Shown: positions 17,199 to 59,156 of the stretch, in pieces
How positions within the stretch are numbered: the first letter of the stretch is position 1
Layout of the letters: each line of letters starts with the position of its first letter
From: Methanobacteriota archaeon
GTDB lineage: Archaea; Thermoplasmatota; Poseidoniia; Poseidoniales; Poseidoniaceae
NCBI GenBank assembly: GCA_014240385.1
Contig: JAAZXA010000068.1
Span: 29,090-93,089 of the forward strand
DNA length: 64,000 bases
Reading direction: 5' to 3'
Notes under the pieces: generated by a model
What the model was told of the DNA's origin: nothing
The model's input: only the letters and a program-made list of their open reading frames with translations
Database searches by the model: none
Program-made: the position numbers and the translations under genes

Positions 17199-17954
17199 TT
17201 ATTCCATAGATGCAATCTTTTGCTCTATGGCTGTGTGCTTTCGAAAGATGCTTAGGCATCTAATTCGTGTGTTTGGGCCACAGGTGATTGATACCACACC
17301 ACATCTTGTTGCCCCTTTGGGCTGAATGTAAACCAAATGGTGTAAGGCGAGGAGATATCCTCCTGGCTTTAGCACCCTGATGGCTTCTTTGACCCATGAA
17401 TAGGGCTTGATGTATTCTGTTTTCCATAACTTGTCGGAGTAATCTATCTTGACTCCGTCTGTTGTTTGCATGTCGTAAGGTGGATCTGCAATAACCATGT
17501 CGTATGAATCAGTTTCAATAGGGAACTGTTGTCTGGCATCAGCTACGAATGTAGGATTATTCGCTTCGCTAATGTCCATTGTGTCTTCATTCTCCCTTCC
17601 TTGGATGCTTCCCGAGAATAGGTGTAATACCTTGGTTTCATCGGTGACTTCCATTAGGGCGTCTACTCTACGAAGGAACCCATTTGGGTAGGCTCCCTTG
17701 TATTTCGCCATTGGTCGGCCACAAGCCCACCCTAGACGGAGTGATTTTTCCGTCATGTGGGTCAATGAGGCGTCTTTCTGTTTCAATTTGTTGTAATGCC
17801 TAGCGATTCGATGAATCGTCCCTTTCGAAACTGTTTCACCAATCCTATCGCCTGCCATCTTAGCAGCATCGTCATACGAGTTATTGCTAAGATCGTTGAT
17901 TACTTGCATATGGTCTAGCAATTCAACCTTTCTTCCTTTCAATGTTAAGGACAT
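17199..17954 (-). CDS. DNA methyltransferase (N6-A/N4-C type) with N-terminal HTH
   Basis: PM-ATG; motif I VLHLFSGS, motif IV MVIADPPYD. Confidence 0.75.
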   Translation of the reverse strand: MSLTLKGRKVELLDHMQVINDLSNNSYDDAAKMAGDRIGETVSKGTIHRIARHYNKLKQKDASLTHMTEKSLRLGWACGRPMAKYKGAYPNGFLRRVDALMEVTDETKVLHLFSGSIQGRENEDTMDISEANNPTFVADARQQFPIETDSYDMVIADPPYDMQTTDGVKIDYSDKLWKTEYIKPYSWVKEAIRVLKPGGYLLALHHLVYIQPKGATRCGVVSITCGPNTRIRCLSIFRKHTAIEQKIASME

Positions 17955-17961
17955 GAGCGGT

Positions 17962-18249
17962 TCAGTCTTTCATATCTTCGACTGCTGCTATCATTTGATA
18001 GAAGCGAGCATTCCTTTGATTGGGGCTCCCCATACCATACTCGTGTCCGTAGATTAGAGGGGTACAGGCCTTGTGCGTATCAGTTAGATGTTTTTCAATT
18101 TCATCAAGAGATACCCCTGCTTCCAATAGGAACTCGGTCCAGTTGCTAAATCTTTCATAACCATCGTGCTTTCTCAACATTCTCAATGATTGTTTCCATC
18201 GTTTCAGATCTGCTTCTTTGTCATCTGTCGTCATTTCTATTTCTGCCAT
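17962..18249 (-). CDS. hypothetical protein (95 aa)
   Basis: track ORF; PM-ATG at 18249. Confidence 0.7.
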   Translation of the reverse strand: MAEIEMTTDDKEADLKRWKQSLRMLRKHDGYERFSNWTEFLLEAGVSLDEIEKHLTDTHKACTPLIYGHEYGMGSPNQRNARFYQMIAAVEDMKD

Positions 18250-26096: not shown

Positions 26097-26340
26097 GAGC
26101 GGTTCTTTTCATTCCAGCGGGGGATGTTTCGTCACCTTGAACTTGAGCCGACCCCCATCACTTGATTCTTGCCTACAAGCAGTGGGGAGGTATCTTTCAG
26201 TGGTGGGCGAGTATCGAGCCCCTTGTTTCAAAGAACCCGGTTATATCATTGGTTGTCTCCTTTCGAGTTTCTTCGGTGTCGTCCAAGGATTGGACACCTA
26301 CTTTCTCTACTTTGGACTGCAATAAGTCCCCGTGAGCGGT
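26097..26340 (-). ncRNA. non-coding island C
   Basis: opens with TGA-ATACCGCTCACGG (26332-26340), conserved hairpin at 26275-26298, closes with PM-ATG at 26096. Confidence 0.4.
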
Positions 26341-26342
26341 AT

Positions 26343-29073: not shown

Positions 29074-29378
29074 GAGCGGTTTGTACCGGCATACTCTTGC
29101 TTAGACTGTTCGCTGGACAGTTGGCCTGTGAATCTAACTGCAACACTCCGTCTTCCCGTTTCTGTCTCCGTAGATACAATTGAGGGAAGCTGCGGGTTTG
29201 TCAATTGACTCGATGGCATCGTGGCCGAAGCCGCAGGATGCCCTAAGCAGTATCTTACCGTAGGTACTTACCCGACTCGCCAATTAGGGGTCACACCATC
29301 CATGACTGTTGGTGCCGTCCAAGGATTGGACACCGTAAGCGTATTGGTTCTGCCCCGGTTAGGTCTGTCGTGAGCGGT
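29074..29378 (-). ncRNA. non-coding island D
   Basis: opens with TAA-ACCGCTCACGA (29370-29378), conserved hairpin at 29311-29334, closes with PM-ATG at 29073. Confidence 0.4.
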
Positions 29379-29585
29379 TTAATCATTTCTAACAAGGTTG
29401 TAGACATATTCGAATAAATCTCTTCCTTGTTCTGTGAAGCCAGATGGATCATCGTCGTTTTCAACGATGTTTCCTTCTGCATCTAGGTTGTATAGTAACT
29501 TGCGTTCAATAAGTCCTTCATCAATTAAATATTCGATTACTGAATCTCCTGCATCGCAAGCTTCTCCTATGTTGTTTTCTTCCAT
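29379..29585 (-). CDS. hypothetical acidic protein (68 aa)
   Basis: track ORF; PM-ATG at 29585. Confidence 0.7.
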   Translation of the reverse strand: MEENNIGEACDAGDSVIEYLIDEGLIERKLLYNLDAEGNIVENDDDPSGFTEQGRDLFEYVYNLVRND

Positions 29586-30865: not shown

Positions 30866-31207
30866 TTATTCACCATGATGCCATTTGAGAGCCTTTTCAT
30901 CCCAAGGCCCCCAATGCAGGTGATTTAGTACATTCTCAATTACTTCTTCATAGGTGTATTCAATAATCTCATCGGGATTGATTTTTCCTCGTCTGAAGTA
31001 AATCTCCCATGCCATCTTCACCATTCCATTTGGCCCCGATGGGTCAAAAACCCATTCGGTTAGCCATTCATCTGTGAATCTGACAAAGGCGTGGCCGTAT
31101 CGAATTCCTTCGATTTCTCCCTCGCCTGTTACTTCGGCGTGGACTAATCGGTATTCTGGATTCTCTTGAGCCAATTGAGCTGCTAATCGATAGCATTCTC
31201 CTTTCAT
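30866..31207 (-). CDS. hypothetical protein (113 aa)
   Basis: track ORF; PM-ATG at 31207. Confidence 0.75.
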   Translation of the reverse strand: MKGECYRLAAQLAQENPEYRLVHAEVTGEGEIEGIRYGHAFVRFTDEWLTEWVFDPSGPNGMVKMAWEIYFRRGKINPDEIIEYTYEEVIENVLNHLHWGPWDEKALKWHHGE

Positions 31208-31214
31208 GAGCGGT

Positions 31215-31502
31215 TCAGAATGGAAGATCTAATGCAATCTGCTTTGCGTGTTCTGGTGCATGTTTCGCTATTACTTCCCAAAATGGGCTTTCTGTAATTG
31301 CGTCTTTGCCTCCCGTATCACTCCAAGTTGGAGGAAGGGTTGTTTGGTTTCCATTCTTGTCGAGAAGCCATGCTTGAATGAAATAACTTGTTTCGCCTGT
31401 TATTCCCCCACGGTCAAATCCGTAGGCGAGGTTCCAGTTTTGCTGTTCTTCTATGTTTTTCAATACATTCAGGTTCTCTGCATATCCTAGATATCTAGTC
31501 AT
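31215..31502 (-). CDS. hypothetical protein (95 aa)
   Basis: track ORF 31215..31571 trimmed to PM-ATG at 31502. Confidence 0.7.
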   Translation of the reverse strand: MTRYLGYAENLNVLKNIEEQQNWNLAYGFDRGGITGETSYFIQAWLLDKNGNQTTLPPTWSDTGGKDAITESPFWEVIAKHAPEHAKQIALDLPF

Positions 31503-37695: not shown

Positions 37696-37782
37696 CATGT
37701 GGGGTTATCGTTATGTCCATCTCGATTCATGGCTCCATTGCCGACCTCTAATAGGCGGAGCGGGATTTTTTTCGGTGTGTTG
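37696..37782 (-). repeat. 87-nt promoter/leader-like repeat, copy A
   Basis: near-identical to 40303-40390 (2 substitutions plus a 1-nt indel); ends in ACCCCACATG; contains an A7 run and CCTATTAGAGG. Confidence 0.85.
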
Positions 37783-39840: not shown

Positions 39841-40305
39841 TCATTGAGCGACCTGCCGCTTTCGTCTTGCTAAAGGAACTGGTGTTCTTTTGGGCTTGAC
39901 GGTTTTAGCGGCAGGTTGTACTCGGCTTCTGGACGCCTGATTAAACAGGTTAGTCGCAGATGATGTTCTTGCCTTATTCTTCTGCCCCTTGAACTGGGAT
40001 TTCTTGGCATGTGGCTTTGACGCCTTTGCCTTGACAGTTTTCATGTGCTTTCTCCAAGCCTTGATGTGATTATCATAGATTGGATCTGCGAAAACTGCTT
40101 CTGGCACATACCGAGAGACCATACTTCCGATTCGATTCCAGCCACCAAAACTCAATGAATCATTCATTGCGTTTTTGATTTTGGAAACATAGGATGCTGG
40201 AGCATTCTTATTCAGTTTGCTCCAGTGTTCGGAACCCATCTTGGTAACCCAAGTTGGGATGTAGAGTTCTTGCGGGGTTTCGATGTTCTTATTTTGCATA
40301 TTCAT
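39841..40305 (-). CDS. hypothetical protein with Lys/Arg-rich C-terminal tail (154 aa)
   Basis: track ORF; start follows the 88-nt repeat copy B. Confidence 0.7.
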   Translation of the reverse strand: MNMQNKNIETPQELYIPTWVTKMGSEHWSKLNKNAPASYVSKIKNAMNDSLSFGGWNRIGSMVSRYVPEAVFADPIYDNHIKAWRKHMKTVKAKASKPHAKKSQFKGQKNKARTSSATNLFNQASRSRVQPAAKTVKPKRTPVPLARRKRQVAQ

Positions 40306-40390
40306 GGGGGGTTATCGTTATGTCCATCTCGAATCATGGCTCCATTGCCGACCTCTAATAGGCGGAGCGGGATTTTTTTCGGTAGTGTTG
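40303..40390 (-). repeat. 87/88-nt promoter/leader-like repeat, copy B
   Basis: near-identical to 37696-37782; ends at the start codon of 39841..40305. Confidence 0.85.
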
Positions 40391-41034: not shown

Positions 41035-41168
41035 TGGTGGACCGTGCTGGATTCGAACCAGCGGCCTCCTAAGACAGACAACTTCGACTCCTTCCGTCCT
41101 GCCCGGGACAGTTCGGTTTTTGTCTTATTCTGTTTCTTAGGCGCTCTTCCTGACTGAGCTAACGGCCC
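41035..41168 (-). tRNA. tRNA-like gene with a 57-nt insertion in the anticodon loop and encoded CCA; identity unresolved
   Basis: reverse complement folds as GGGCCGT/TA/GCTC-AGTCAGGAA-GAGC/G/CCTAA-[64 nt]-TTAGG/AGGCC/GCTGG-TTCGAAT-CCAGC/ACGGTCC/A/CCA. Confidence 0.75.
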
Positions 41169-41193: not shown

Positions 41194-41234
41194 CTTCCTC
41201 ATTGGTATAGGTCATAGGGGCCGTAGGCCCTGAC
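41194..41234 (-). repeat. 41-nt promoter-like module, copy 2 (upstream of the tRNA)
   Basis: CTTCCTCATTGGTATAGGTCATAGGGGCCGTAGGCCCTGAC; 3 mismatches to copy 1; followed in minus sense by hairpin GAGGAAG-AAATA-CTTCCTC. Confidence 0.8.
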
Positions 41235-41376
41235 CCATTTGTGTGTGGTTTTTGTGTGTTTGTGAGCGGTTTAGCCTGATTTCCAATCCATACTGACGAA
41301 CTTCCTCGTAAACCAATTCTGGCCTTTCGGCACTCTCGGTTTGCGTAAGAGAGCGAGATCGTTCCCCGTGAGGGGC

Positions 41377-42097: not shown

Positions 42098-42563
42098 GTG
42101 TGGTATAATTTCTTCGTGGTTTTAGGCCACAGGAGGTATATGAATAGGCCCTTTTACTCTCTTTCCTTTGGATCTAGAGGCCTCAAGCTGCTACTCTTGG
42201 CCTCTTTCTCTAGAAAGAGTGTATTTTGGGTATTTCTTCATGTTCTCCACTGTATTGTGCCACAGGGGGTATATGAATAGGCCACTTGCAGTCAATTTCA
42301 AGATCGCTGAAAGGGCATGATTAGCTTCTCATGCCTTCGCTTTCAATTATTGCTTCAATATGGGTATTTCTTCATGTTCTCCACTGTATTGTGCCACAGG
42401 GGGTATATGAATAGGCCATATTTCGGTAACATCTCCAGATCTCTCCTTCGAAAGCTACTCCTGGCATGGCCGTAGGCCAAACAGGGTGAAATATGGGTAT
42501 TTCTTCATGTTCTCCACTGTATTGTGCCACAGGTGTTATTTGGCAAGGCCGTTTCCGTTAACC
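42098..42563 (+). promoter_or_regulatory. four tandem promoter-like repeats at about 133-bp phasing; the last drives the TFB-like gene
   Basis: TGGGTATTTCTTCATGTTCTCCACTGTATTGTGCCACAGGGGGTATATGAATAGGCC at 42227 and 42360; degenerate copy at 42098; copy at 42493 ends GGTGTTATTTGGCAAGGCC, 28 nt before ATG 42564. Confidence 0.75.
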
Positions 42564-43694
42564 ATGGCGAGTAATGACGATACGGCCAATCAGATGGGGG
42601 CGACTGCTGATTTTTCGTCAATATCGTCTGTCCTTTGTCCTGCATTCGAACAGCCGCCTGGGTGTGCCGTCTCCCTTGCCAAGCAACAAAACTTTGATTC
42701 TTTGTCAGTCGACTCTATGACTGGGAGGGCGTATTGCGGATCATGCGGCGTGGAATTCGTTGTTGACCGTTATCAGGTTAGTCATGAGCAGAAAAAGAGT
42801 GATGATGGGATAGAAACCTACGGATCTGTTCTCTCCAAGTCTGGGAAGCAACGGAATAGGGAACAATCCTTTGACCGCCTGGGCTATCTTTGTATTAGCA
42901 AGTTGGACTTATCTCAAAGTGTGTTGGCACAAGCTACCCGCTACCTGTACGATATGATGGAAGGTGGAGCCGCTAAAGGAGGTCGGGGTTTTCCCCAACT
43001 CGAAGTGGTTGCGGCTTATGTGGCAGGTAGAATGCATAATCAATCCCTTACTCTCGAACATGTTGTTAATATCCATCGAGATTGGATTACAGAAGAAGGG
43101 GAGTTCAAATCGATAAAGGCGGCATCTATGAAATCAGTTAATCGATTGCTGCAGAATATGACTAGGGAAAACATTCTGCCTTACCCCCGCCCTTCTGCAG
43201 ATGATATCATTGGTTCTAATTCGTGGTGCTTGGCTAATCTAGATGAAGTCATTATTCAGAATGCTAAGGAGTTGTCTAATTGCGGAGTCCAAGGTTCCCC
43301 CGATTCTATTGCTGCAGCATCGGTGATGGTGGCTGCGAAGAATAAGCGTGTTGTGAAACCCGGAGATGACTTATCGCGGCCACGAACACAAATGGCCGGA
43401 GAGGAAGATGGGCAGCGTTTAACGCTCGAAGTGATTGCCAAATTGTTTCCTGGCACTACTGCTAGAACTGTAAGGCGAAGAATGAAAGAGATTAGGGATG
43501 TTTTGGAACTTAGGCTACCTCTAACACGAGAGCAAGTAGAGGTTCTTGAAAATCCTGATCCCCGCAAGGTGCGTGTCCGTAATACTGTTGAGGAAGTATT
43601 CAGTCAATTGGATTCGGAATTGGAAGGAAAGATACCATTGACTTCTAAGGATGTAGCAATTCTACGAAAATTGAAAGATTCAAACAAGAGGTAA
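42564..43694 (+). CDS. TFB/TFIIB-like transcription factor (376 aa)
   Basis: track ORF 42486..43694 trimmed to MASNDD. N-terminal Cys pairs (CPAF..GC, CGSCG). Two cyclin-like repeats: RGFPQLEVVAAYVAGRMHNQSLTLEHV and GSPDSIAAASVMVAA...LTLEVIAKLFPGTTARTVRRRMKEI. Confidence 0.7.
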   Translation: MASNDDTANQMGATADFSSISSVLCPAFEQPPGCAVSLAKQQNFDSLSVDSMTGRAYCGSCGVEFVVDRYQVSHEQKKSDDGIETYGSVLSKSGKQRNREQSFDRLGYLCISKLDLSQSVLAQATRYLYDMMEGGAAKGGRGFPQLEVVAAYVAGRMHNQSLTLEHVVNIHRDWITEEGEFKSIKAASMKSVNRLLQNMTRENILPYPRPSADDIIGSNSWCLANLDEVIIQNAKELSNCGVQGSPDSIAAASVMVAAKNKRVVKPGDDLSRPRTQMAGEEDGQRLTLEVIAKLFPGTTARTVRRRMKEIRDVLELRLPLTREQVEVLENPDPRKVRVRNTVEEVFSQLDSELEGKIPLTSKDVAILRKLKDSNKR

Positions 43695-44135: not shown

Positions 44136-44428
44136 CAGGCCTCATCCCCCTCGTCCTTCCTAAGTTGTGTGAGTTCTTGCACCAGCCGCCAGACTATGTC
44201 GTCCATTGTCTCGCCCCTGTTGCCGAGGCTATTCAAGATTTCATGCGTTCTTTGCTTAACATTGATGTGTTTCAACTTTGAGCCGTCTGCCGCAATGTTC
44301 CCCATGAGACCAACTGTGTGTATCTGTCGTATAAGCGACTCGGAGGGATTGGGATGGGATGTGAAAGGCTGTGATACTTGGGCAAGAGGGGAGAGAGTTT
44401 ATGCACCGTGCGCTGAAAGGCGCCCATA

Positions 44429-44635
44429 ATGAAAGCAGAAGATCCTCTAGTGCAAACCTTACTCAAGACCCTGATGGAGTTAGAAAAGGTGGATGAAAAA
44501 GACTTGAGACACATGATTGAAGTTGCTGGACAACTATGTACCCAACTCGAGCGGCCGGAGAGTATTGCGGCCTTGATGTTTCAGGTGATGGATGTTTCCA
44601 AAGCGGTTGATTCCTCGATTACTGGTTATGCCTGA
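44429..44635 (+). CDS. hypothetical protein (68 aa)
   Basis: track ORF; TTTATGCACC box begins 31 nt upstream of the ATG (leaderless-type spacing). Confidence 0.6.
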   Translation: MKAEDPLVQTLLKTLMELEKVDEKDLRHMIEVAGQLCTQLERPESIAALMFQVMDVSKAVDSSITGYA

Positions 44636-44639
44636 ATCC

Positions 44640-44654
44640 TTCATACGACTGAAC
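44640..44654 (+). promoter_or_regulatory. promoter-like box P1 TTCATACGACTGAAC
   Basis: ATACGACTGAAC begins exactly 27 nt before ATG 44670. Confidence 0.6.
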
Positions 44655-44669
44655 ACCTTCGGCTCTCAC

Positions 44670-47111
44670 ATGAGAGTAGGTTTTCTCCTGTTAGGCAACG
44701 CCCCGTTTTACTTGACTGGGTATGGTACGCAATTGAAAATTCTAGGCGACAAATTAATTGAAGAGGGTTACCCTGTAGGTCATGTTGTTGACTTTGGATA
44801 TGCTGGACAACATATGGAATGGGAAGGGCGAACTGTTTACCCCCATGATAAGTTGCCAGGAACTCTGACTGCTGATACAATGAAATCGCACATCCTGTCT
44901 TTTCAACATAAACACGGTTTAGATCAAGTCGTTGTTTGGTCTTTGGGTGATACATGGAAATTGAGTAAGTTGAATCAAGCCATCAAGCACCCGTATTGGA
45001 TTTGCATGACTCCTGTTGATTCGGATAGGATGGATGGCGGTTCAATTACCGCTCACAATAATTCATGGTTGCAAGCCGCAATATCGAAACATGGTGTTGA
45101 AATTATGAGGGCTGCTGGATTAACTGGCATCAATTACCTCCCCCACATGGTCGGAGATTCCTTTGTGCCAATAAATCAAGAGTATGCTAGAGCCGCATGT
45201 GGTTTGCCTCAAGATCCCTTTGTCGTTGGTTTCTTTGGAGACATGAGTATGCGTAAATGCCCTCATGAGAATCTAGAGGCTTTTGCAATTTTCAAGCAGT
45301 CCGTACCGAACTCCCTCCTCTTCATCAAGACTAGTAACCATGTCCAACAGGTTCAATTCCATGAATTAATTCATAGGCTGGGTTTGCAGAATTCGGTTAT
45401 CACAATTCCCCCCTATGATTCCCTTCTAGGGCTAACGGATTATGAGATGGCACGAGCCCTCTCCAGTTTGGATGTGCTTCTTCATGTGAGTTCCCAAGAG
45501 GGTTTTGGAATCATACAAGTTGAAGCCCAAATGTGCGGAGTACCTGTTATCAACATGGATTTTGGTTCCCAAAGAGAGCTTCAAGGAAATCCCGAACTGT
45601 TGGTTCCTGTGGAACAGATGAATCGTGTTGATGGTGGAATGAAGGTTCCATTTGCGGCACCTGAGAAGATAGCGGAGAAGTTGATGTCTGTTTACAACCA
45701 TCTCAATAAAGTCAGCAGTCTTTCCGATGGTTTTATCGTCAAAAGGGCAATCGAACATGCAGAAACATACAGGGTTGATAAGGTGTGGGACGAGTATTAC
45801 AAGCCATTCCTCAAAGGGATGATTGGATCTATTGATGCGGTTTCTAGAGTTGTTATTCCCCCCCGTTCATTGAAGAAGGTGGGCATTGTTTCTACATTCG
45901 ATACTGAATGTGGAATTGCTACTTACACCCACATGCTTGCTACAAAATTGGTAGAGCAGGGAATGGAAGTTGTTGTCTTTTCGGAAACAGACGGTGAGTT
46001 TGAAGAAGTTCTTGAACATGAAGGTATTCGGCACCATCGATGTTGGAATCGAATGAATCCAAACACCAAATTATTCCGTGAACTTGTTGAGAGGGAGGGT
46101 TGCGATATTATCCACTTCCAGCACGAATGGCAGTTGTTCAAGAGTACGGGGTTGATTGAGGAACTTCGAGATGTACAAGTTAAGAAAGCCATCACATATC
46201 ATACCCCTCAGCCCGACCAAATGCGTAAATTGCTAAGGATTACTGATTCAACCGTTGATGCCCACATAACGCACTGGCCGGAGACTACCCAGTTGTTGCC
46301 AATGGTTTGTGAACATGGGATGTTGAATGGTGTCCAAACCATCAAACATGGTGTCCTTGAGCATTCACTTGTCCAGGACAAGTCTGTTCTGGGCATTCCT
46401 GAAAAGGTTCCAGTATTCTTCACCTTTGGTTTTGCTTCTTCAAGCAAGGGGTTGGATTATTTCATTGATGCGGCCATCCAAGCTTCTAAGAATCCAAATT
46501 GCCGGTACTTCGAAGTTGTAATTGCAATGTCCTATCATCCCGATTGGGATATGAGCGACTTGGCGAAGGAGATTAGAGCGAAGGCTGGTTCTGTTGATTT
46601 CATTACGCTTATTGAAGGATGGATGGATGATGATTCACTTGATGTTCATGCGGCTGCTAGTGACTACCTTGTTTTCCCCTACCGTTGGTACCAACAGATC
46701 CATAGTGCGTCTGGCGCAGTTAGACGCGTTTTGGGTCATGGTAAGCCCGTCTTGGTTACAGATGAGGGAAGGCTTCGAGATTTGACTGGAGGCGTACACG
46801 GTTGGAAGTTCGGCCAATACGATGTAGATGGCTTCGCTGCTGCTATTGTTGATGCGTCTTCATTACTTGGCAGTCCTCGGTATCAAAAGATGGCCCAAGC
46901 GGTCAAGGATTACTCTTCTTTGACCTCGTGGGATAATATTGCTGCGCAACACATTCAACTTTACGATAAGGTCTGTGGCTTGTGGTCGGTGGTTCCAGAG
47001 GGTATGTCACGAGCCCAAAGAGTTGAGATTGATTTACCATTCCCAGAATTACTTGATTCGGATGTTCAAGTGGATCGTTGGCATTTGCATAGGGGTGACG
47101 AAGAAGAATGA
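44670..47111 (+). CDS. large two-domain glycosyltransferase (GT-B, GT4-like; 813 aa)
   Basis: track ORF 44592..47111 trimmed to MRVGFLLLG; VSSQEGFGIIQVEAQMCGVPVI E-x7-E region; second Rossmann-like half begins KVGIVSTFDTECGIATY. Confidence 0.8.
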   Translation: MRVGFLLLGNAPFYLTGYGTQLKILGDKLIEEGYPVGHVVDFGYAGQHMEWEGRTVYPHDKLPGTLTADTMKSHILSFQHKHGLDQVVVWSLGDTWKLSKLNQAIKHPYWICMTPVDSDRMDGGSITAHNNSWLQAAISKHGVEIMRAAGLTGINYLPHMVGDSFVPINQEYARAACGLPQDPFVVGFFGDMSMRKCPHENLEAFAIFKQSVPNSLLFIKTSNHVQQVQFHELIHRLGLQNSVITIPPYDSLLGLTDYEMARALSSLDVLLHVSSQEGFGIIQVEAQMCGVPVINMDFGSQRELQGNPELLVPVEQMNRVDGGMKVPFAAPEKIAEKLMSVYNHLNKVSSLSDGFIVKRAIEHAETYRVDKVWDEYYKPFLKGMIGSIDAVSRVVIPPRSLKKVGIVSTFDTECGIATYTHMLATKLVEQGMEVVVFSETDGEFEEVLEHEGIRHHRCWNRMNPNTKLFRELVEREGCDIIHFQHEWQLFKSTGLIEELRDVQVKKAITYHTPQPDQMRKLLRITDSTVDAHITHWPETTQLLPMVCEHGMLNGVQTIKHGVLEHSLVQDKSVLGIPEKVPVFFTFGFASSSKGLDYFIDAAIQASKNPNCRYFEVVIAMSYHPDWDMSDLAKEIRAKAGSVDFITLIEGWMDDDSLDVHAAASDYLVFPYRWYQQIHSASGAVRRVLGHGKPVLVTDEGRLRDLTGGVHGWKFGQYDVDGFAAAIVDASSLLGSPRYQKMAQAVKDYSSLTSWDNIAAQHIQLYDKVCGLWSVVPEGMSRAQRVEIDLPFPELLDSDVQVDRWHLHRGDEEE

Positions 47112-47335
47112 CTGAATGGAAGAAGGAAGATGTTGGCAAGGAAACTCCCGTTTTTATCGAGGGAGTGAAGGTGATTGATATGATTGTTGAAGTAATGTTG
47201 CCAGATGGGCAGGTTATTATTGGGCCTCAATTGGCGTGTGCTCATATTTTTGCTCGTTATTCAATGGTTCCTGCAATGGAGATGGTTAGCGAAGCTACAC
47301 AGAAAACAATTGAAAGCATGGAGGGGGATGCATGA
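47108..47335 (+). CDS. hypothetical protein (75 aa)
   Basis: track ORF; ATGA overlap with the glycosyltransferase stop. Confidence 0.65.
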   Translation: MTEWKKEDVGKETPVFIEGVKVIDMIVEVMLPDGQVIIGPQLACAHIFARYSMVPAMEMVSEATQKTIESMEGDA

Positions 47336-47418
47336 CGCCAGGAGTGGTATACAAGTGTGTGAAATGTGGTGTTTGGAGTATGGGTACTCACAAATGCGTT
47401 CAAGAGGAGGAAGAGTAG
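47332..47418 (+). CDS. zinc-ribbon micro-protein (28 aa)
   Basis: MTPGVVYKCVKCGVWSMGTHKCVQEEEE; GGAGGGGGA SD; ATGA overlap upstream, stop abuts ATG 47419. Confidence 0.45.
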   Translation: MTPGVVYKCVKCGVWSMGTHKCVQEEEE

Positions 47419-48177
47419 ATGTTATCCGTAATCTGTTGTACTGCCCGTCAAGAGGCAGGTATCAAAGAGATGTTGAAGAGTTTGGAAAAGCAGACGCATA
47501 CTGATTTCGAGTTTGTTTTGGTTGATAAGGCATGGGAATCTCGCAACGGGGCTTTCATCCTGATGCTGGATAATTCGTCGGTTAATTGCAAATACATCAA
47601 AGACGAATCCAAACATGGATTTGTTTCGATTGCCTCTGCTCGGAACCTAGCAGTTGAGTCCTCCGATGGAGATTGGATCGTTTCAGTTGATGATAGGACG
47701 CTGTTCTACCCCGATACCTTGGAACTACATGCGCAAGCATTTGAGGAAGGTTGGGATGGTATGGCGGGTTTTTCTGATTTCCACCACGAAGGCGTTTTTG
47801 CTGAGAAAGAACCAGACAAAGAGGATGAGAGGGGAGATAACCCCCAGTCAGGACATGGGAAATATGCATCAAGTAATTTCTTTGGCTATCACATGGGGTT
47901 CTCGAAGAAGGCTTGGGCTAAGGTCCGGGGTTTCGATGAGAACTATGATGGTGTTTACGGGTGGGAAGATTGTGATTTTGGTTTGAGGCTCGGTAATGCG
48001 GGAGCGGTTGTGAAATTGGGAACCCAATGTCGTGTGCTGCAGATTCGAGACGCTGCACATGGCGAGGTTTTCCAGAAGGATGATGCGCCACATGCAATTA
48101 CTGGAGGTCACATCAGATGGCGTAATGACCGAATGTATAGGCTCACATTAATGAACAGGGGCAGGTGCAGGTGGTAA
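47419..48177 (+). CDS. family-2-like glycosyltransferase (252 aa)
   Basis: track ORF; LSVICCTARQEAGIKEMLKSLEKQTHTDFEFVLVD N-terminal GT-A pattern, VSVDD acidic motif; GAGGAGGAAG SD. Confidence 0.7.
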   Translation: MLSVICCTARQEAGIKEMLKSLEKQTHTDFEFVLVDKAWESRNGAFILMLDNSSVNCKYIKDESKHGFVSIASARNLAVESSDGDWIVSVDDRTLFYPDTLELHAQAFEEGWDGMAGFSDFHHEGVFAEKEPDKEDERGDNPQSGHGKYASSNFFGYHMGFSKKAWAKVRGFDENYDGVYGWEDCDFGLRLGNAGAVVKLGTQCRVLQIRDAAHGEVFQKDDAPHAITGGHIRWRNDRMYRLTLMNRGRCRW

Positions 48178-48178
48178 T

Positions 48179-48313
48179 ATGAAAACAAATGGACGCAGAT
48201 ATCGCAGATTAATGGCGGCTTGGAAGAAGAATAGAAGAGGGCGTTCGAAGCCTGTAGCTTCTAAGCGTCAAGGCCGTCCGGTAAGCAAGAAGAGAACCCC
48301 TCGGAGGAGATGA
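48179..48313 (+). CDS. highly basic micro-protein (44 aa)
   Basis: MKTNGRRYRRLMAAWKKNRRGRSKPVASKRQGRPVSKKRTPRRR fills the gap between neighbouring genes exactly. Confidence 0.45.
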   Translation: MKTNGRRYRRLMAAWKKNRRGRSKPVASKRQGRPVSKKRTPRRR

Positions 48314-48314
48314 A

Positions 48315-48950
48315 ATGGTTGATGGTCTTCTGCAGCATGATGAATATTCTGATGTTTGTCCAATCTGCAAGGAAATTGTCACCGAAGAAGAATGGCCTGT
48401 GCCGATTTCGAGAATGGAAGAACGGACAGGGCAGAAGTTTCCCCCTTGCGTAGTATGTGGTTCTGATGAAGACATCCATTACAATTACCTGACTATGCCT
48501 CAGAAGGATGGAAGAGGATTCAATCACAATCTTTTGCTGTGGTGCGAATCCTGCGGAAGTGGTACGCAACATGATGGGTTTGATGTATTGACAGGTAAGC
48601 CCAAGATCGCCCTGCGATTACCGAATGAGTTTTCCAATGATTCGATGGAGAAGGCGAAGGAACGGCTTGAAGCGGCTTTGGCCGCAGGTGAACAGGATGA
48701 AGAACTCGCCCAGGAGATCCAAGCAATGTTAGTCATGCGTGGTTTTTTCCGAGTCCACCATTACCCTTGCTTAGATGATGGTTGGGATGCGATGGGGCAT
48801 GGAGTCCGACCACTAGAAAGAAACGAGATTATGAAGAGGTTCTATGAATGGTCTAATGATGAGGCCATAGGTGTGGCCGAACTGTCTGACAATCCTTTGA
48901 CGAAGAATAAATCTCCTAGGACTCGAAAGCGTGGGAAGCGTTGGTGGTAA
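48315..48950 (+). CDS. multi-zinc-finger protein (211 aa)
   Basis: track ORF; GGAGGAG SD; CPICKE, CVVCGS, CESCGS. Confidence 0.7.
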   Translation: MVDGLLQHDEYSDVCPICKEIVTEEEWPVPISRMEERTGQKFPPCVVCGSDEDIHYNYLTMPQKDGRGFNHNLLLWCESCGSGTQHDGFDVLTGKPKIALRLPNEFSNDSMEKAKERLEAALAAGEQDEELAQEIQAMLVMRGFFRVHHYPCLDDGWDAMGHGVRPLERNEIMKRFYEWSNDEAIGVAELSDNPLTKNKSPRTRKRGKRWW

Positions 48951-48958
48951 CGAACTGA

Positions 48959-48973
48959 TTATATGACTGAACC
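48959..48973 (+). promoter_or_regulatory. promoter-like box P2 TTATATGACTGAACC
   Basis: ATATGACTGAAC begins exactly 27 nt before ATG 48988. Confidence 0.6.
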
Positions 48974-48987
48974 ACTTGAACCAAATC

Positions 48988-49146
48988 ATGCGAGACCCAA
49001 CCTACAAAATCGCCCTAGTCTTTGAAGATGCAGAAGGAAACAATGTTACTCTGGCAACAGATGTACCTGAGAACCAAGTCGGATTGGCACATGCTTCAAT
49101 GTTGAAGCTTGCTGCTGGACTCAAAGGCAAGAGCGACGACGAGTGA
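48988..49146 (+). CDS. hypothetical protein (52 aa), below track cutoff
   Basis: MRDPTYKIALVFEDAEGNNVTLATDVPENQVGLAHASMLKLAAGLKGKSDDE; start positioned by box P2. Confidence 0.5.
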   Translation: MRDPTYKIALVFEDAEGNNVTLATDVPENQVGLAHASMLKLAAGLKGKSDDE

Positions 49147-49189
49147 TTAAAAGCGTAAATGCTAAGGGGCAGAGCCTCTTCGCCTGTTC

Positions 49190-49729
49190 ATGCTCAGCCA
49201 ACCGCATTCTGCTGTAAATCACATGAATTACAGTATTCTTGGTTCACATACTGTTCAAGATGCGGCCAATAATGCGAAGAATAATTTCTCTCCTTCGCAG
49301 AGATCTAGACATGCTCGAACCGCATATCAGAATAATCATCAGAATCTAATGCAACCGGCTATTGCTAACAATCCTCATCTTGCAGATGTTTTGAGAGGTT
49401 CTCAAGATCCAATGGGCGCCTCTTGGAATACTGGCGCTTTTCTCATCGCCGCAGGCGTGGGTGGGTTATTGTCGGTGGTGTCGTCGTCGAAGGACTTGAA
49501 GAGTTTTGGGAAATCGAAGAAGACACAAAGGAGAAACATTACCATTGGTACTATGATTGCTGCTTGTGGGCTGCTTGCAGTTGGATATTCGAAGAATTCT
49601 GAATTAATTCCCGCAGGTATCGGACTTCTTTCTGGCAATGTGGTTGGCAACAACTTGTGGTCTATCGGCTCCCGCGATTCTGGATTCGACTTTACGCCTT
49701 CGAAGTCCCTATTTGAGTTGGACTACTAG
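49190..49729 (+). CDS. membrane protein (179 aa; start uncertain, alternative ATG 49223)
   Basis: track ORF; TM segments GAFLIAAGVGGLLSVV and IGTMIAACGLLAVG. Confidence 0.65.
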   Translation: MLSQPHSAVNHMNYSILGSHTVQDAANNAKNNFSPSQRSRHARTAYQNNHQNLMQPAIANNPHLADVLRGSQDPMGASWNTGAFLIAAGVGGLLSVVSSSKDLKSFGKSKKTQRRNITIGTMIAACGLLAVGYSKNSELIPAGIGLLSGNVVGNNLWSIGSRDSGFDFTPSKSLFELDY

Positions 49730-49739
49730 ATGGGAATGG

Positions 49740-49754
49740 TTCAAACGGCTGAAC
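49740..49754 (+). promoter_or_regulatory. promoter-like box P3 TTCAAACGGCTGAAC
   Basis: AAACGGCTGAAC begins exactly 27 nt before ATG 49770. Confidence 0.6.
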
Positions 49755-49769
49755 CGGCTGGCATTGTCT

Positions 49770-50195
49770 ATGTCGGCAGAAGATGACTCGCACACATTAC
49801 GCATCTTTGGGTTACTTTTCGTAAACTCATTTCTGATTGGTGCGGCAGTTGGGATCCACCAGCAGGGGCTTTGGTTCCCTGAAGAAAGTAATTGGGCTAA
49901 GATTGCAGGCCTCTATATGATGAGTGCTACATTTATTCAAATGGTTGCATTTATGATTTACAAATTGTTCTTCCAGGAGCGACTTGAAGATCAATCGTAT
50001 ATTCAAGGGCTTCATTCCTCTATGCGTCGTAGTATGAAGAAAATTAATGCGGAGACTCAACAATTCCAAGTGGGTCTCGAATTGGAAGCTAAGAGAGCCC
50101 AACAGCAGAAGCAGATGCAATTGCTACGAAATAAGGTCATGGAAGATGATGATGAGTCTGGCCTTAGCGAGAAGATGATGATTGAACTTCGGTGA
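49770..50195 (+). CDS. membrane protein with C-terminal coiled coil (141 aa)
   Basis: track ORF 49638..50195 trimmed to the ATG set by box P3; TM segments LLFVNSFLIGAAVGI and LYMMSATFIQMVAFMIY. Confidence 0.65.
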   Translation: MSAEDDSHTLRIFGLLFVNSFLIGAAVGIHQQGLWFPEESNWAKIAGLYMMSATFIQMVAFMIYKLFFQERLEDQSYIQGLHSSMRRSMKKINAETQQFQVGLELEAKRAQQQKQMQLLRNKVMEDDDESGLSEKMMIELR

Positions 50196-50204
50196 GGCTA
50201 CCTT

Positions 50205-50414
50205 ATGCGAGGGCTTCTTTTTCCAAGTGAATCTGCTCATCAAGCAGAGATAATGGCTGAGGCTTTTGCCAATAAATCGATATGGGACATGCGATGGTAC
50301 AAATTCAAACTTTGGTTCTACACTAGCGTAACTGCTTTCATCTTCATGTTCTTTACATCCCTTATTGAATGGTTCTTTGATTTCAGTCTTTTCAAGTGGA
50401 TGTTCGGGCTGTAG
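50205..50414 (+). CDS. small membrane protein (69 aa)
   Basis: track ORF; GGTGAGG SD; TM segment FYTSVTAFIFMFFTSLIEWFF. Confidence 0.65.
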   Translation: MRGLLFPSESAHQAEIMAEAFANKSIWDMRWYKFKLWFYTSVTAFIFMFFTSLIEWFFDFSLFKWMFGL

Positions 50415-50416
50415 GT

Positions 50417-50431
50417 TTCATACGGCTGAAC
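50417..50431 (+). promoter_or_regulatory. promoter-like box P4 TTCATACGGCTGAAC
   Basis: ATACGGCTGAAC begins exactly 27 nt before ATG 50447. Confidence 0.6.
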
Positions 50432-50446
50432 CGTCTCACATTGTCC

Positions 50447-51211
50447 ATGACGCTAAGCGGATTCATTGCAATGCCTCGAAAACCGGGGAAAACAAAGATT
50501 GGGCAGATCCTCAAGAATATTGGATTCAAGGATAAGGGAGCAGCAGGAAATATGTGGGTCTTTGGTAAGACTCGGTTCCGTGTAGATGTGGTTGATTTTA
50601 GGGATGATTTGAGAGATCATGACGCTGAATGGGTTGAAGAAGTTGGATGGGATGATAATTGGGCCGTCCGTATTGCTGTCAATCATTCTAACAGAACAGA
50701 TGAAAATTACATCTTGTGGCATTCGATTCTAGTCATAGCCGCTGAGTGCTTAGGCGTTAGAGAAATTTGGTTAGATGGCGGCACAGGCATTCCACAGCAA
50801 CCGTACACACTTCGAGAGTTGTTTCCTGAATTGAAATCTGATGAAGGAGAAGACTTGATTGAAGAATCCGAAGCCGCCCCTGTTCTAGTCGACAAGGCAG
50901 AAGTCTTGGAGCTTCCAGATATTGAAACACCTGCTGAGCCTGTTTTGGTTCCATCTGAGCCTGAGCCTGAGCCTGAGCCTGAACCTGTGCCTGAGCCTCA
51001 AACAGAATCGTCCGAAGAGGATTACGATTCCTGGGGATGGGATGAGGATGAGGATGAGGATGAGGATGAGGATGAGGATGAGGACGATTCATGGAATGAG
51101 GATGAGGATGAGGATGAGGATGAGGATGAGGACGAGGATGAATCCGAAGAAGAGAATGAATCCGAAGAGAATGAATCCGAAGAAGGTGTTGATGTAATCA
51201 CTGAATGGTGA
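50447..51211 (+). CDS. protein with (EP)n and (DE)n low-complexity C-terminal half (254 aa)
   Basis: track ORF 50396..51211 trimmed to the ATG set by box P4. Confidence 0.7.
   Translation: MTLSGFIAMPRKPGKTKIGQILKNIGFKDKGAAGNMWVFGKTRFRVDVVDFRDDLRDHDAEWVEEVGWDDNWAVRIAVNHSNRTDENYILWHSILVIAAECLGVREIWLDGGTGIPQQPYTLRELFPELKSDEGEDLIEESEAAPVLVDKAEVLELPDIETPAEPVLVPSEPEPEPEPEPVPEPQTESSEEDYDSWGWDEDEDEDEDEDEDEDDSWNEDEDEDEDEDEDEDESEEENESEENESEEGVDVITEW
50957..50998 (+). repeat. hexanucleotide tandem repeat (GAGCCT)x7, imperfect
   Basis: read directly; encodes EPEPEPEPEPVPEP. Confidence 0.9.
51041..51142 (+). repeat. two runs of (GATGAG)n hexanucleotide repeat
   Basis: 51041-51085 and 51096-51142; encode DEDEDE... 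tracts. Confidence 0.9.
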
Positions 51212-51948
51212 GTTCTTTGGTTGAAGGGGGTGCAATGGCGTGGGGAGGCCTCCTTTACCTCAAGCACCTTTGGGATTCTTGGAAAAGTCACCGAATAGGA
51301 ATATATGGCCTGTGGGCGTGTGGTAAGACCACCCTGAATCGTTATTTGAATACCTCTGGGGATCTCGAAGAAGATACTGCCCGTATGACTAGCACCGCTC
51401 ACCCCTATGATAAGAAGAAGAAGCAGTATGTTCCACCAAATGCAACCCGCAAGAGAATTCATGTTTTGTCCGAAGCAAATCAGTCATTCCGTAGAACCAT
51501 TCTCTCGTCTGATATTGGAGGCCAGTCCGAATATTTCAATCTCTGGGTTCGAGATTTGGTGTTGCGTGATGTTGAAGTAATCATCTATCTGGTTGATTCA
51601 AGGGATGATCCAGATGGGCTTCAAGAGGCAACATTTCGAGACTTTACGAGAATTATTGCCGAGAGAGATTTCCGTTTTACTGAACGAAAATTGAGGAAAA
51701 AGGCCAGAAATTATCAGCCGAAGGTGGTAGCCCTTGTTGCCAATAAATCGGACCTTTGGCTCAATCCAGACGAACGGGCGTATTACGAGGGGTCTGGCAT
51801 TGGCAGGCATCCAATTTTTGATGCTTACAGGCCGCACTTGGTACGGCTACAGAGAGCCGGTATTCCTACTTTGAAGCGAAGTATTTCAGCCCTCCATGGG
51901 TATGATGTGGAGCGATTAATATGGGATTGCTTGAAGGCGAAGTCGTGA
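51205..51948 (+). CDS. Arf/Arl/Sar-like small GTPase (247 aa; alternative start ATG 51235)
   Basis: G1 GLWACGKTT, G3 DIGGQSEYFNLW...IIYLVDSRD, G4 ANKSD, G5 SAL; hydrophobic N-terminal helix MAWGGLLYLKHLWDSW, as in Arf. Confidence 0.75.
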   Translation: MVSSLVEGGAMAWGGLLYLKHLWDSWKSHRIGIYGLWACGKTTLNRYLNTSGDLEEDTARMTSTAHPYDKKKKQYVPPNATRKRIHVLSEANQSFRRTILSSDIGGQSEYFNLWVRDLVLRDVEVIIYLVDSRDDPDGLQEATFRDFTRIIAERDFRFTERKLRKKARNYQPKVVALVANKSDLWLNPDERAYYEGSGIGRHPIFDAYRPHLVRLQRAGIPTLKRSISALHGYDVERLIWDCLKAKS

Positions 51949-51959
51949 TATGACTAAAC
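51945..51959 (+). promoter_or_regulatory. promoter-like box P5 GTGATATGACTAAAC
   Basis: ATATGACTAAAC begins exactly 27 nt before ATG 51975. Confidence 0.55.
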
Positions 51960-51974
51960 CACTTGGCAACTACC

Positions 51975-52748
51975 ATGTCGATGTTTGGCGATGAGGCTTC
52001 GAGTGGTCTGGAGGATTCTCATTTTATGTCGAATGTGAGGTTCACCTTCGATGACAATCCGGATCCATACAAACGAAGAAAGATAAATATGAAAAACGCG
52101 TATGGCGTTTTGAAACCAAAGCGTAGATGGAGGATTGGTTCCCCCGTCCATAACAATGCAGGACAATGTTGTGTTACTGGTATTGATTTGAGGGCTTTGG
52201 GTGCTGAAGCTTACAACAGGGCTTTACTTGACCCGCATACCCTGCAGCCTGTGGATGATGGTCGAACATTGATGACTGAGTTCTTTCTAGATCATTTGAC
52301 GGGCAAACCAGTTCAGTTTGCGGCTCAATCTGGAGTTACTACTGGTTTGCCGCTTCGTTCGTCTTATTGTCCAGGATTATTGCAGATTTATTGGTTGTAT
52401 ACTCAATGGAAATATGAAACCGATATGGAAGAACAGGGTAGGAATAGTTCATTCCTTAGAAGTAGAGGTATTGAATTAAAGCCTTTGAGAAGAAAGGATG
52501 TCAAAAAGCGCAATAGACCCTTGTTAGTCGATGAAATTGAGCCTTTTTTTGCTAAGGTCAAAATGCATGAAGGGCAGGGCATAACCATTGTTGAGTATTC
52601 TAATCCTGATGAAAATTCTAACTTCTTCGGAGAGATTGATTTAGTACACATAACATTGGATTTGCGGAAGATGCGAAGCGAGGAATTAAATAGGGAAAAG
52701 ACAAAGGGGGGCAACCCCTCCGATAATCAAAGCGAGGTTATACCATGA
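51975..52748 (+). CDS. hypothetical protein (257 aa)
   Basis: track ORF 51963..52748 (TTG) trimmed to the ATG set by box P5. Confidence 0.7.
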   Translation: MSMFGDEASSGLEDSHFMSNVRFTFDDNPDPYKRRKINMKNAYGVLKPKRRWRIGSPVHNNAGQCCVTGIDLRALGAEAYNRALLDPHTLQPVDDGRTLMTEFFLDHLTGKPVQFAAQSGVTTGLPLRSSYCPGLLQIYWLYTQWKYETDMEEQGRNSSFLRSRGIELKPLRRKDVKKRNRPLLVDEIEPFFAKVKMHEGQGITIVEYSNPDENSNFFGEIDLVHITLDLRKMRSEELNREKTKGGNPSDNQSEVIP

Positions 52749-54995: not shown

Positions 54996-55190
54996 AAGGA
55001 AAATAAGGGTGGTCTCGGCTCATAAACCCCACGATGGGGGAAGACTAAACCGAATGATCCCCGTAGGGCCAAGTGGACGGCAGGAGGGGCATCGGAGAGG
55101 TCGACACACGCAAATGTGCAGACTCCGATACTCCTGTCGTCCACCTGAGCATTAGAAATAAATGGCGGCGGTATATGTGATCTTCGCTGA

Positions 55191-57563: not shown

Positions 57564-58385
57564 CTACTCTTCCTCAGTCGCTTGATTGTTTTGGAAAGGA
57601 ATGGTTATTTCAGGTTCGGCCACAAGGGTTGGATGTATGCCTTCTACTACCTCTCCATCAACATCCATCATGCCATAGATGTACAAATTCTTTTTCTCGA
57701 GAATGTTCTTGATTGTCTGTCTGTGCCAGACCACCTTTCCCTTCCTTGTTTTGATGGCTTTTGTTGCTAGTTCATTGATTATGTCGGATATTGTGTAGCC
57801 TTGAGTTTCCATATTGAAGATTATGTTTACTACGCTTGCTTCTTCTTCGTTTGGTACAAGCAAACCTTTCTTGGATCTCTTTCCTGTATCATCGATTTCA
57901 ATATTCATGTCATACCCATAGGGGGGTGTTCCAAGCCAAATTCCTTTCAACTTTGCACCTGCCATGCCCATTTTGACTCTTTCTTTGATTTCATTTCGCC
58001 TTAGTTCAGCCAATGCTGCGAATACTATGTAGAAGAAGCGGCCTTGAACCGTTGTAGTGTCCATTTGTTCAGAGATACATGCAATATGGCAGTTGTTTGT
58101 ATCAATTGTGTTTACAAATTCAATTGCGTTCATGGTGTTGCGATGAAACCGGTCTAGTTTGTAACCAACTACTGCGTCCCATTCTTCGCCCATGGTTTCC
58201 ATCATCGCACCATATCCAGGCCTGTTGTCTGTGAATCCACCTGATCCTGTATCTGAGTAGCTTCGAATGTAAGTCCAACCTTGCATTTCGATGTAGTTCT
58301 GGCAAAGCCTCAACTGTTCCTCTAGGCTGTGGCCTTTTGCTTCTTGCTTCTCGGTTGAAACTCTTGTGTAGATTATTGCTCGCAT
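57564..58385 (-). CDS. serine recombinase (resolvase/invertase catalytic domain plus C-terminal extension)
   Basis: MRAIIYTRVSTEKQ...GHSLEEQ...YSDTGSGG...RPGY; canonical N-terminal Ser-recombinase motifs. Confidence 0.85.
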   Translation of the reverse strand: MRAIIYTRVSTEKQEAKGHSLEEQLRLCQNYIEMQGWTYIRSYSDTGSGGFTDNRPGYGAMMETMGEEWDAVVGYKLDRFHRNTMNAIEFVNTIDTNNCHIACISEQMDTTTVQGRFFYIVFAALAELRRNEIKERVKMGMAGAKLKGIWLGTPPYGYDMNIEIDDTGKRSKKGLLVPNEEEASVVNIIFNMETQGYTISDIINELATKAIKTRKGKVVWHRQTIKNILEKKNLYIYGMMDVDGEVVEGIHPTLVAEPEITIPFQNNQATEEE

Positions 58386-58703: not shown

Positions 58704-59082
58704 GGTTCGTTCACCATAACCTTGGTTAATTGTCGCTATGAAGGGTCAGTCGTATTACACCTTCGCCCTGTGAACCGAATTATCACCCGTTTAACACGCT
58801 ATTCCCCCCCACATAGGGGGTATGTTGACGATGAAGGAGTTCCTTTGCGCTCAACCCCCCCACCTTCATAGTCAAAAACGGGTATTTTTCACCTCATAAC
58901 TTCTCATTGAATCGCAAGTCCTCACATCACATCTCAATTGTAAGGTTGGGGTGGAATGAACCTCATGTGGTTCTGCGCTTCTAACCTTCGTTCACAGGCA
59001 ATTCCAATTCCTATCTACACATTAGGGGTGAATTACCTACTTCGTGCAACAAGGGATCTAGATGAAACAATAGGAAACAAGG

Positions 59083-59156
59083 CGGGTCATGCAGGGTTCG
59101 AACCTGCGGCCTACTGGTTAAGAGCCAGTCGCTCTACCTGACTAAGCTAATGACCC
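59083..59156 (-). tRNA. tRNA-Lys (anticodon CUU)
   Basis: GGGTCAT/TA/GCTT-AGTCAGGTA-GAGC/G/ACTGG-CTCTTAA-CCAGT/AGGCC/GCAGG-TTCGAAC-CCTGC/ATGACCC/G. Confidence 0.9.

Follow-up and report, generated by a model that had tools for sequence, protein, structure and literature searches.

Five copies of a conserved box, each placed 27 nucleotides (nt) before a start codon, probably form a virus-specific class of core promoter producing leaderless mRNAs in the 64,000-nt stretch of contig JAAZXA010000068.1 analysed here (hereafter, the window), which likely comes from a sizeable virus or virus-like element whose hosts are marine Poseidoniales (Marine Group II). Judged from the sequence, we put the probability of this reading at roughly 0.78. 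It is carried by the position, spacing and conservation of the boxes, the absence of Shine–Dalgarno (SD) sequences at the boxed genes, the promoter geometry of the host and the rarity of the box in host DNA. The exact core AWAYGRCTRAAC begins at 44643, 48961, 49743, 50420 and 51948, only on the + strand in the whole window, and these five matches fall within 7.3 kb, compared with 0.16 expected from dinucleotide shuffles. With up to one mismatch allowed, the window contained 11 matches compared with 4.7 expected. Because the AWAYGRCTRAAC pattern was derived from the sites themselves, this enrichment statistic is partly circular, and independent support comes from related genomes. A sequence-only reading of this DNA had located the five boxes and placed a 12-nt core, A(T/A)A(T/C)G(A/G)CT(G/A)AAC, exactly 27 nt before the ATGs at 44670, 48988, 49770, 50447 and 51975, and both the coordinates and the distance were confirmed.

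All five boxes lie on the + strand and have counterparts in related loci (L001–L013; host loci are labelled L016–L135, and negative positions are counted from the start codon or from tRNA +1). Box 1 (TTCATACGACTGAAC, 44640–44654) is the putative promoter of a six-gene GT4 glycosyltransferase operon (44670–48950), and both the box and its 27-nt spacing are kept before the glycosyltransferase orthologue in L002, L004–L007 and L008–L012. Box 2 (TTATATGACTGAACC, 48959–48973), the putative promoter of a 52-amino-acid (aa) gene at 48988–49146, is conserved in L006 and L013. Box 3 (TTCAAACGGCTGAAC, 49740–49754) may drive the gene at 49770–50195 (141 aa) together with an SD-led gene at 50205–50414, and it is present before the orthologue (MxAEDDSH...) in L006 and L008–L013. 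Box 4 (TTCATACGGCTGAAC, 50417–50431) is the putative promoter of a gene for an acidic-repeat protein (50447–51211) and of an Arf-like GTPase gene (51205–51948), and box 5 (GTGATATGACTAAAC, 51945–51959), which overlaps the stop codon of the GTPase gene, that of 51975–52748 and the genes after it. With a spacing of 26–27 nt, box 4 is found before the orthologue (MTLxGFI...) in L006 and L008–L012, and box 5 before the orthologue (MSMFGxE...) in L009, L011 and L012.

The codon at 44670–44672 (+) is the predicted +1 and start codon of a leaderless glycosyltransferase mRNA, in keeping with protein conservation from M1 and the lack of an SD sequence, and the equivalent predicted positions are 48988, 49770, 50447 and 51975. 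None of the five boxed ATGs, which follow gaps of 26–40 nt, has an SD-like sequence, whereas, of nine closely packed internal genes in the same block, eight have GGAGG, GGTGA, AGGTG or GAGGT 5–15 nt upstream, as the sequence-only reading had described. An inverted repeat, GCTCTC-ACAT-GAGAGT, spans the glycosyltransferase ATG at 44662–44677 (+) and is not conserved in L002 or L004; the start codon would be buried within it in a read-through RNA, and a transcript initiated at the ATG would be without the left arm.

Related loci were gathered using the glycosyltransferase and a TFB-like protein of the window as anchors, and they fall into four further lineages, which span 45–80% protein identity overall: L002, L004–L007 and L013, with 75–85% protein identity; L001 (of the same sequence as L012) and L008, with approximately 55%; L009 and L010, with approximately 54–55%; and L011, with approximately 54%. 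Their sources are marine metagenomes, those of Tara included, with L002 coming from TARA SAMEA2619888; a contig of 127.6 kb in IMG/VR is one of them. In a position weight matrix built from ten sites, the window boxes scored 17.9–27.3 bits and the rest of the window at most 17.4 bits. High-scoring boxes precede orthologues of four of the five window genes in the related loci, plus further genes. Among 33 non-redundant boxes from the five lineages, the interval between core start and start codon or tRNA +1 was 27 nt in 26, 26 nt in six and 28 nt in one, and the spacer between box and start diverges in sequence while its length stays constant. The logo of these boxes reads T-29 Y A W A Y G R Y T G A A C C-15, followed by T-11 and C/G-10, and the region from about −9 to −1 is freely variable. 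The core proposed earlier thus stood, but the conserved block is longer than had been claimed, and the hexamer CTGAAC, which had been called invariant, is CTAAAC in box 5 and TTGAAC, CAGAAC or CTGTGA in relatives. A pyrimidine (C/T) occupies position −1 in 26 and a purine (A/G) position +1 in 27 of the 33 boxes, a pattern consistent with an initiator. Furthermore, conservation of the glycosyltransferase protein begins at residue 1 of the predicted start, with invariant columns from M1. In L009, L010 and L011, its start codon at +27 is GTG; leaderless GUG starts exist, a leader of 0–5 nt being counted as leaderless (PMC4983044).

The box is not confined to protein-coding genes. In L001/L012, exactly 27 nt separate it from position 1 of tRNA-Lys (8821 to 8848) and likewise from that of tRNA-Arg (9865 to 9892), and in L008, it stands 27 nt before tRNA-Arg (96 to 123). 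Partial boxes stand 27 nt before tRNA-Lys in L009 (AAACGGCTGTGA, 8858 to 8885) and L011 (AAACGGCAGTGA, 1244 to 1271), bringing to three the lineages with a box or partial box at this distance from a mature tRNA 5′ end. Since an ATG and a mature tRNA 5′ end have only a possible transcription start in common, a promoter with its start 27 nt from the start of the core is favoured, and the tRNA cases argue strongly against a translational or peptide role. The leaderless tRNA genes of Nanoarchaeum equitans are alike in having the promoter 26–27 nt upstream of tRNA +1 and a primary transcript whose 5′ end is the mature one (PMC10100707). This distance was seen in the viral tRNA-Lys or tRNA-Arg genes of L008, L009, L011 and L012 and in most host tRNA-Lys genes. 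In N. equitans, however, leaderless tRNAs occur genome-wide, along with the loss of RNase P, whereas few tRNAs are concerned here.

The tRNA-Lys promoters of the host, Poseidoniales and related genomes (L016–L135), place their TATA box at the same position. A TTAAATA-type box starts at −28/−27 in 75 of 117 distinct regions upstream of host tRNA-Lys. The consensus is gaTTAAATAC/G, of which TTAAATA occupies −28 to −22; the motif hardly ever stands elsewhere nearby, and every region carrying it has T or C at −1. This geometry implies transcription of these host tRNAs with little or no 5′ leader, as in N. equitans. TYAWAYG occupies −29 to −23 in all 33 viral boxes and agrees with the host TATA position within 1 nt, supporting binding of TBP there and a start at +1. 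The full box, in contrast, is nearly absent from host DNA: at 17 bits or more, there was one match in 881 kb, compared with four to six per viral locus of 15–64 kb. The shared TATA position together with this rarity suggests that YTGAACC (−21 to −15) and T-11 are virus-specific. Three weak box matches in L065 are probably due to chance, because no homologue of any window protein was found in the host loci; no provirus was found there either. The distance from promoter to ATG in host mRNA genes generally gave no clean peak in the 881 kb of redundant host loci. The spacing, the tRNA cases, the protein starts and the host TATA geometry all support the reading as promoters of leaderless transcripts proposed earlier, and the idea of a dedicated class fits both the rarity of the box in host DNA and the coexistence of other promoter-like types in the virus.

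Several points nevertheless weigh against this interpretation. Many of the 33 sites are orthologous and represent fewer than 33 independent events, and two tRNA-Lys sites entered the set by position, not by score. The TATA-like part is weak, with C/T-G at −24/−23 and A/T at just three to five of eight positions, and no block resembling a B recognition element (BRE) is conserved upstream at −37 to −31 in the 33 boxes, where only a weak G-36 (0.9 bit) appears. The window's own tRNA-Arg and tRNA-Lys are without the box. The host sample, 120 loci totalling 881 kb, is a redundant collection of tRNA-Lys neighbourhoods from which the true host species may be missing. In addition, aligning ATACGACT of box 1 with some host tRNA-Lys promoters gives a 3-nt offset, so that a start up to approximately 3 nt before the ATG is possible.

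A candidate reader of the box is encoded nearby. The gene at 42564–43694 (+) specifies a TFIIB/TFB-like protein of 376 aa, which matched the Pfam TFIIB repeat (PF00382) with an E value of 2e-4 and 21.7 bits, under the curated cut-off of 23.6. NCBIfam gave no match for it, sequence searches of the PDB returned nothing relevant, and a scan of IMG/VR with the protein gave no match. An AlphaFold model built with seven homologues was of moderate quality (predicted local distance difference test, pLDDT, 66.8). Compared with the PDB using Foldseek, the model's top 16 matches were TFIIB/TFB chains (best E value 1.7e-7; TM to target 0.37–0.49), including TFIIB of the Pol II pre-initiation complex and the TFB core of Pyrococcus woesei (1ais_B), with Brf chains from rank 17, suggesting a TFIIB-like fold. 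The N-terminus is beta-rich, with invariant C25, C34, C58 and C61, the first pair forming Cx8C, and model confidence is low there. Orthologues were found in all related loci long enough to show them. Because the protein co-occurs with the box in every lineage, it is a natural candidate for the box reader. TFIIB-type factors also contact DNA just downstream of TATA, at what in eukaryotes is the downstream BRE.

A small dimeric regulator is an equally plausible reader. In L009 (9399–9572), L011 (1785–1961) and L010 (near 713), all on the − strand, an opposite-strand box precedes a gene for a 58-aa protein, MGKTAADGSxLKHINIK..., which resembles ribbon–helix–helix (RHH) proteins by eye and in Pfam has only a weak match to DUF7557. 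This protein could be an autoregulated reader of the box.

Considering these results, we propose the following scenario. Host RNA polymerase, together with TBP and a factor of the TFB type, would recognise the boxes. Their 5′ portion, T-29 Y A W A Y G-23, would sit at the host's TATA position, and transcription would begin 26–28 nt downstream, at the A or G that opens the start codon or, in relatives, at tRNA +1. The resulting mRNAs would be leaderless and need no SD sequence, and the downstream genes of each short operon would be translated via their GGAGG/GGTGA sites. The remaining 3′ stretch, R-22 Y T G A A C C-15 followed by T-11 S-10, would be virus-specific and probably recruits or stabilises a dedicated factor, either the viral TFB-like protein touching DNA just downstream of TATA or a small dimeric regulator, which would define a co-regulated class of genes. 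Three parts of this scenario are inferred: where exactly transcription starts (0–3 nt from the ATG), which factor reads the box and when the genes are expressed.

The alternative that survives best, although we consider it rather unlikely, concerns the identity of the reader. The box may be mainly an operator: a dimeric viral regulator, for example of the RHH or helix–turn–helix type, would bind a partial dyad, TTCA-N6-TGAA, that overlaps a weak but otherwise unremarkable TATA box, and would turn all five operons on or off jointly, the TFB-like protein having no specific role. The pairs T-29/A-18, Y-28/G-19 and A-27/T-20 indeed form an inverted repeat of 3–4 bp in most sites, and the dyad extends to 6 bp (GGTTCA-N6-TGAACC) in box 3 and at L006 9023, L009 15626 and L011 8377. 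However, boxes 2 and 5 lack the left arm, as do the tRNA promoters. The position of the box before the RHH-like gene in L009, L010 and L011 fits an operator, but none of the window's proteins was recognised as a homologue of this 58-aa protein. Small regulators that read virus-specific flanks have been published for SIRV2 and relatives (PMC11065993). An operator is compatible with the promoter interpretation and would alter only the identity of the reader.

It is improbable that the box acts as an RNA element, such as a processing signal or an enhancer of translation for genes without SD sequences, within a 5′ leader of at least 27 nt transcribed from further upstream. The boxes lie in gaps of 26–40 nt without obvious terminators, and read-through transcripts containing them are probable. 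However, the same box stands at the same distance before tRNA 5′ ends, where a translation signal would be senseless, the host TATA box occupies the same position, and the conserved block (−29 to −15) is remote from the start codon, with about −9 to −1 variable.

A bacterial or phage-type promoter, read by a T7-like single-subunit RNA polymerase or through a −35 element of the extracytoplasmic function (ECF) sigma type, is very improbable. Box 1 has the 8-mer ATACGACT, which corresponds to positions −14 to −7 of T7 promoters, in common with the T7 consensus TAATACGACTCACTATAG, and the GAAC in the box resembles the GAAC typical of ECF −35 elements. However, ATACGACT is limited to box 1 and its orthologues, the other boxes having ATATGACT, AAACGGCT or AAACGGTT; there is no conservation at a T7-type −4 to +1 or at an ECF −10 element 16–17 nt after GAAC; and no RNA polymerase gene was found among the proteins scanned. 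Sigma-70-like sites were not enriched (15 found compared with 23 expected) and none coincided with a box. The element is moreover archaeal, and a start 14–17 nt after the box would leave the fixed 27-nt distance unexplained. Both the T7-like and the ECF/sigma-70 candidates were thus rejected. Least credible of all is a coding role, with the box specifying a conserved peptide at the N-terminus (F-I/K-R-L-N) in line with automatic gene calls: three of the five boxes do have an in-frame start upstream, with the box translating as FIRLN or FKRLN, and the open reading frames (ORFs) 44592–47111 and 50396–51211 do read it as F-I-R-L-N, as noted earlier, but the in-frame TGA in boxes 2 and 5 and the tRNAs preceded by the same box refute it, and nothing is conserved upstream of the box in the 33 sites.

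The TATA position and the leaderless start are textbook archaeal biology, and in this respect the advance is incremental; what is new is the conserved sequence beside the TATA-like part. In archaeal 'group D' genomes, which include all Thermoplasmata analysed, a promoter box lies approximately 26 nt before first genes and ribosome-binding sites lie on internal genes (PMC6028130). The viral boxes are like this leaderless arrangement, defined by GeneMarkS-2 and seen in the primary transcriptomes of Haloferax volcanii and Sulfolobus, in having a box at approximately 26 nt and first genes without SD sequences. The viral block, however, is approximately 15–20 nt long and carries roughly 20 bits, far above a generic TATA box, and it reaches downstream of the TATA position without a conserved BRE. 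Three features set the box apart: its conservation lies downstream rather than upstream of the TATA position, a conserved BRE is lacking, and it precedes tRNA genes as well as protein-coding ones.

Among viruses, a close likeness is to the promoters of SIRV1 and SIRV2 and to the SIRV2 early-gene sequence read by Aca8, in which a host-type TATA core lies within a longer virus-specific consensus that is common to a gene set and taken to imply dedicated regulators (PMC1635249, PMC11065993). The present boxes differ from those of Sulfolobales viruses in belonging to a Poseidoniales-associated marine virus, in their weaker TATA and strict leaderless spacing, and in standing on tRNA genes as well. 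Furthermore, rudiviruses employ small regulators and the host factor Sta1, whereas a viral TFB homologue is present here. Magroviruses (Aoguangviridae) are Poseidoniales-associated tailed viruses annotated with TFB (PMC10768690), and the window likewise encodes a protein of TFIIB/TFB fold; unlike them, the window is without a match in phage and archaeal-virus records, and its TFB-like protein falls under the Pfam cut-off. No promoter analysis was found in the Poseidoniales-virus literature examined.

Other promoter-like types in the virus share the −27 to −31 geometry. As the sequence-only reading had noted, generic TATA-like sequences begin at −31 of two further ATGs: TTTATGC (44398–44404, +) before the 68-aa gene at 44429, with the same spacing and a diverged spacer in L004, and TTTATGA (55020–55026, −) before the ATG at 54995. 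A second type, CCACAGGTG-TTATTTGGCAAGGCC (42527–42553, +), has TATTTGG starting at −27 of the ATG of the TFB-like gene; its consensus is CCACAGG-NN-TATWTGR...GGCC, and its spacing is conserved in L002, L004, L006, L007 and L012. That one genome has several such consensus types suggests classes separated by timing or by function. The second type is also the last unit of a tandem array at 42110–42550 (+), made of units of approximately 133 nt each ending in CCACAGGGGGTATATGAATAGGCC, with a weaker copy at 41195–41240. The other units have no ATG at +27 and may be drivers of small RNAs, decoys or origin iterons. An 81-nt sequence occurs in two copies, 98% identical, at 37696–37776 and 40303–40383; on the minus strand, each starts with ACCGAAAAAAATCCCGCTCC, a BRE/TATA-like run, and has an ATG approximately 26 nt past the A-run. 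These copies may be duplicated promoters with 5′ gene segments.

The leftward genes of the window carry a different signal, which we regard as more surprising than the boxes. Between positions 1 and 39100, 91 ATGs on the minus strand directly follow ACCGCTC with at most one mismatch, 82 of them as the exact ACCGCTCATG (for example, 3856–3864, 17954–17962 and 31207–31215, all −), compared with none on the + strand. The logo shows conservation at −8 to −1 only and no TATA signal at −27. The gap from the preceding stop codon to the ATG is typically 7–11 nt at these genes, so that the motif makes up the entire intergenic spacer. It is not an SD sequence, and a host 16S rRNA 3′ end, sought for pairing with ACCGCTC, was not found in the fetched host loci. 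The motif was absent from the 881 kb of host DNA, and L002, L009 and L012 retain it as ACC(G/A)CTC-ATG in the equivalent strand orientation. The box and this motif cannot be merged into one element through their AACC, as the conserved T stands four positions past CC in the boxes (AACC-NNN-T) and three past it in the motif (AACC-GC-T); weak box-like matches on the minus strand arise where ACCGCTC follows a TGA or TAA stop codon.

ACCGCTC also heads repeated elements without a long ORF. Four homologous non-coding stretches of approximately 250–300 nt, all on the − strand (29074–29379, 26097–26341, 11145–11390 and 1774–2012), each begin with ACCGCTCAC(G/A) and have a conserved hairpin-like GGTGTCCAATCCTTGGACGACACC approximately 40 nt further on, and they may form a small-RNA family. 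The stretch at 29388 also has a box-like AAATGATTAAAC of 17.4 bits. The presence of the motif at the head of these stretches hints that ACCGCTC marks RNA 5′ ends instead of serving translation alone, and the motif might function in RNA processing, as a TATA-independent initiator, in reinitiation or as a translational operator.

A broader scenario, which we put forward as a speculation and consider doubtful as a whole, is that the virus achieves leaderless expression by two routes, one for the rightward block and one for the 42-kb leftward block. In the rightward block, the viral TFB paralogue would redirect the host RNA polymerase to BRE-less promoters by means of an element just downstream of TATA, amounting to a sigma-factor-like switch for archaea. 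In the leftward block, ACCGCTC, at 91 start codons and four non-coding elements, would mark TATA-less RNA 5′ ends generated either when polycistronic RNA is cleaved in a sequence-specific manner or from an initiator independent of TATA. If this were true, every gene would also be translated as a leaderless mRNA.

The remaining gene content of the window includes GT4 and GT2 glycosyltransferases, PAPS-reductase-like proteins, a DNA methyltransferase, a serine recombinase, the Arf-like GTPase and three tRNAs. The GTPase-like protein of the boxed operon (51205–51948, +) belongs to the Arf family of small GTPases by its Pfam Arf match of 24.9 bits, above the cut-off, and is an unusual cargo for an archaeal virus. 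The product of the gene before it (50447–51211, +) has a long acidic low-complexity tail, with repeats at 50955–51185: PEPEPE, then approximately 18 copies of the 6-nt GGATGA giving Asp/Glu runs, then ENESEE repeats. The serine recombinase (57564–58385, −), with Resolvase and Recombinase domains (E value 3e-35), lies approximately 700 nt from tRNA-Lys(CTT) (59081–59156, −), suggesting integration into a host tRNA-Lys gene. The third tRNA (41038–41168, −; Rfam 48.9 bits), missed by ARAGORN, has an encoded CCA and an insert of approximately 57 nt in the anticodon loop, probably an archaeal-type intron. A 20-nt segment of the viral tRNA-Lys matched, among species-representative genomes, almost only Poseidoniales metagenome-assembled genomes, and tRNA-Lys is identical to that of Poseidoniales at 71 of 74 positions in L012 and 65 of 74 in the window. 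The tRNA with its insert, the TFIIB/TFB-fold protein and the tRNA-Lys identity together indicate an archaeal affiliation. Searched as DNA and as protein, the window gave no match in records of phages and archaeal viruses, and exact-product look-ups of two window proteins gave none.

A promoter class of this kind would correct gene starts that automatic callers have overextended, such as those with FIRLN extensions, and would predict sets of co-regulated genes. For viruses of Poseidoniales, hosts that are uncultured, the box may offer a concrete DNA target for studying the function of viral TFB homologues. The strict placement of TATA relative to +1 would hold for tRNAs and mRNAs alike in this Poseidoniales host–virus system.

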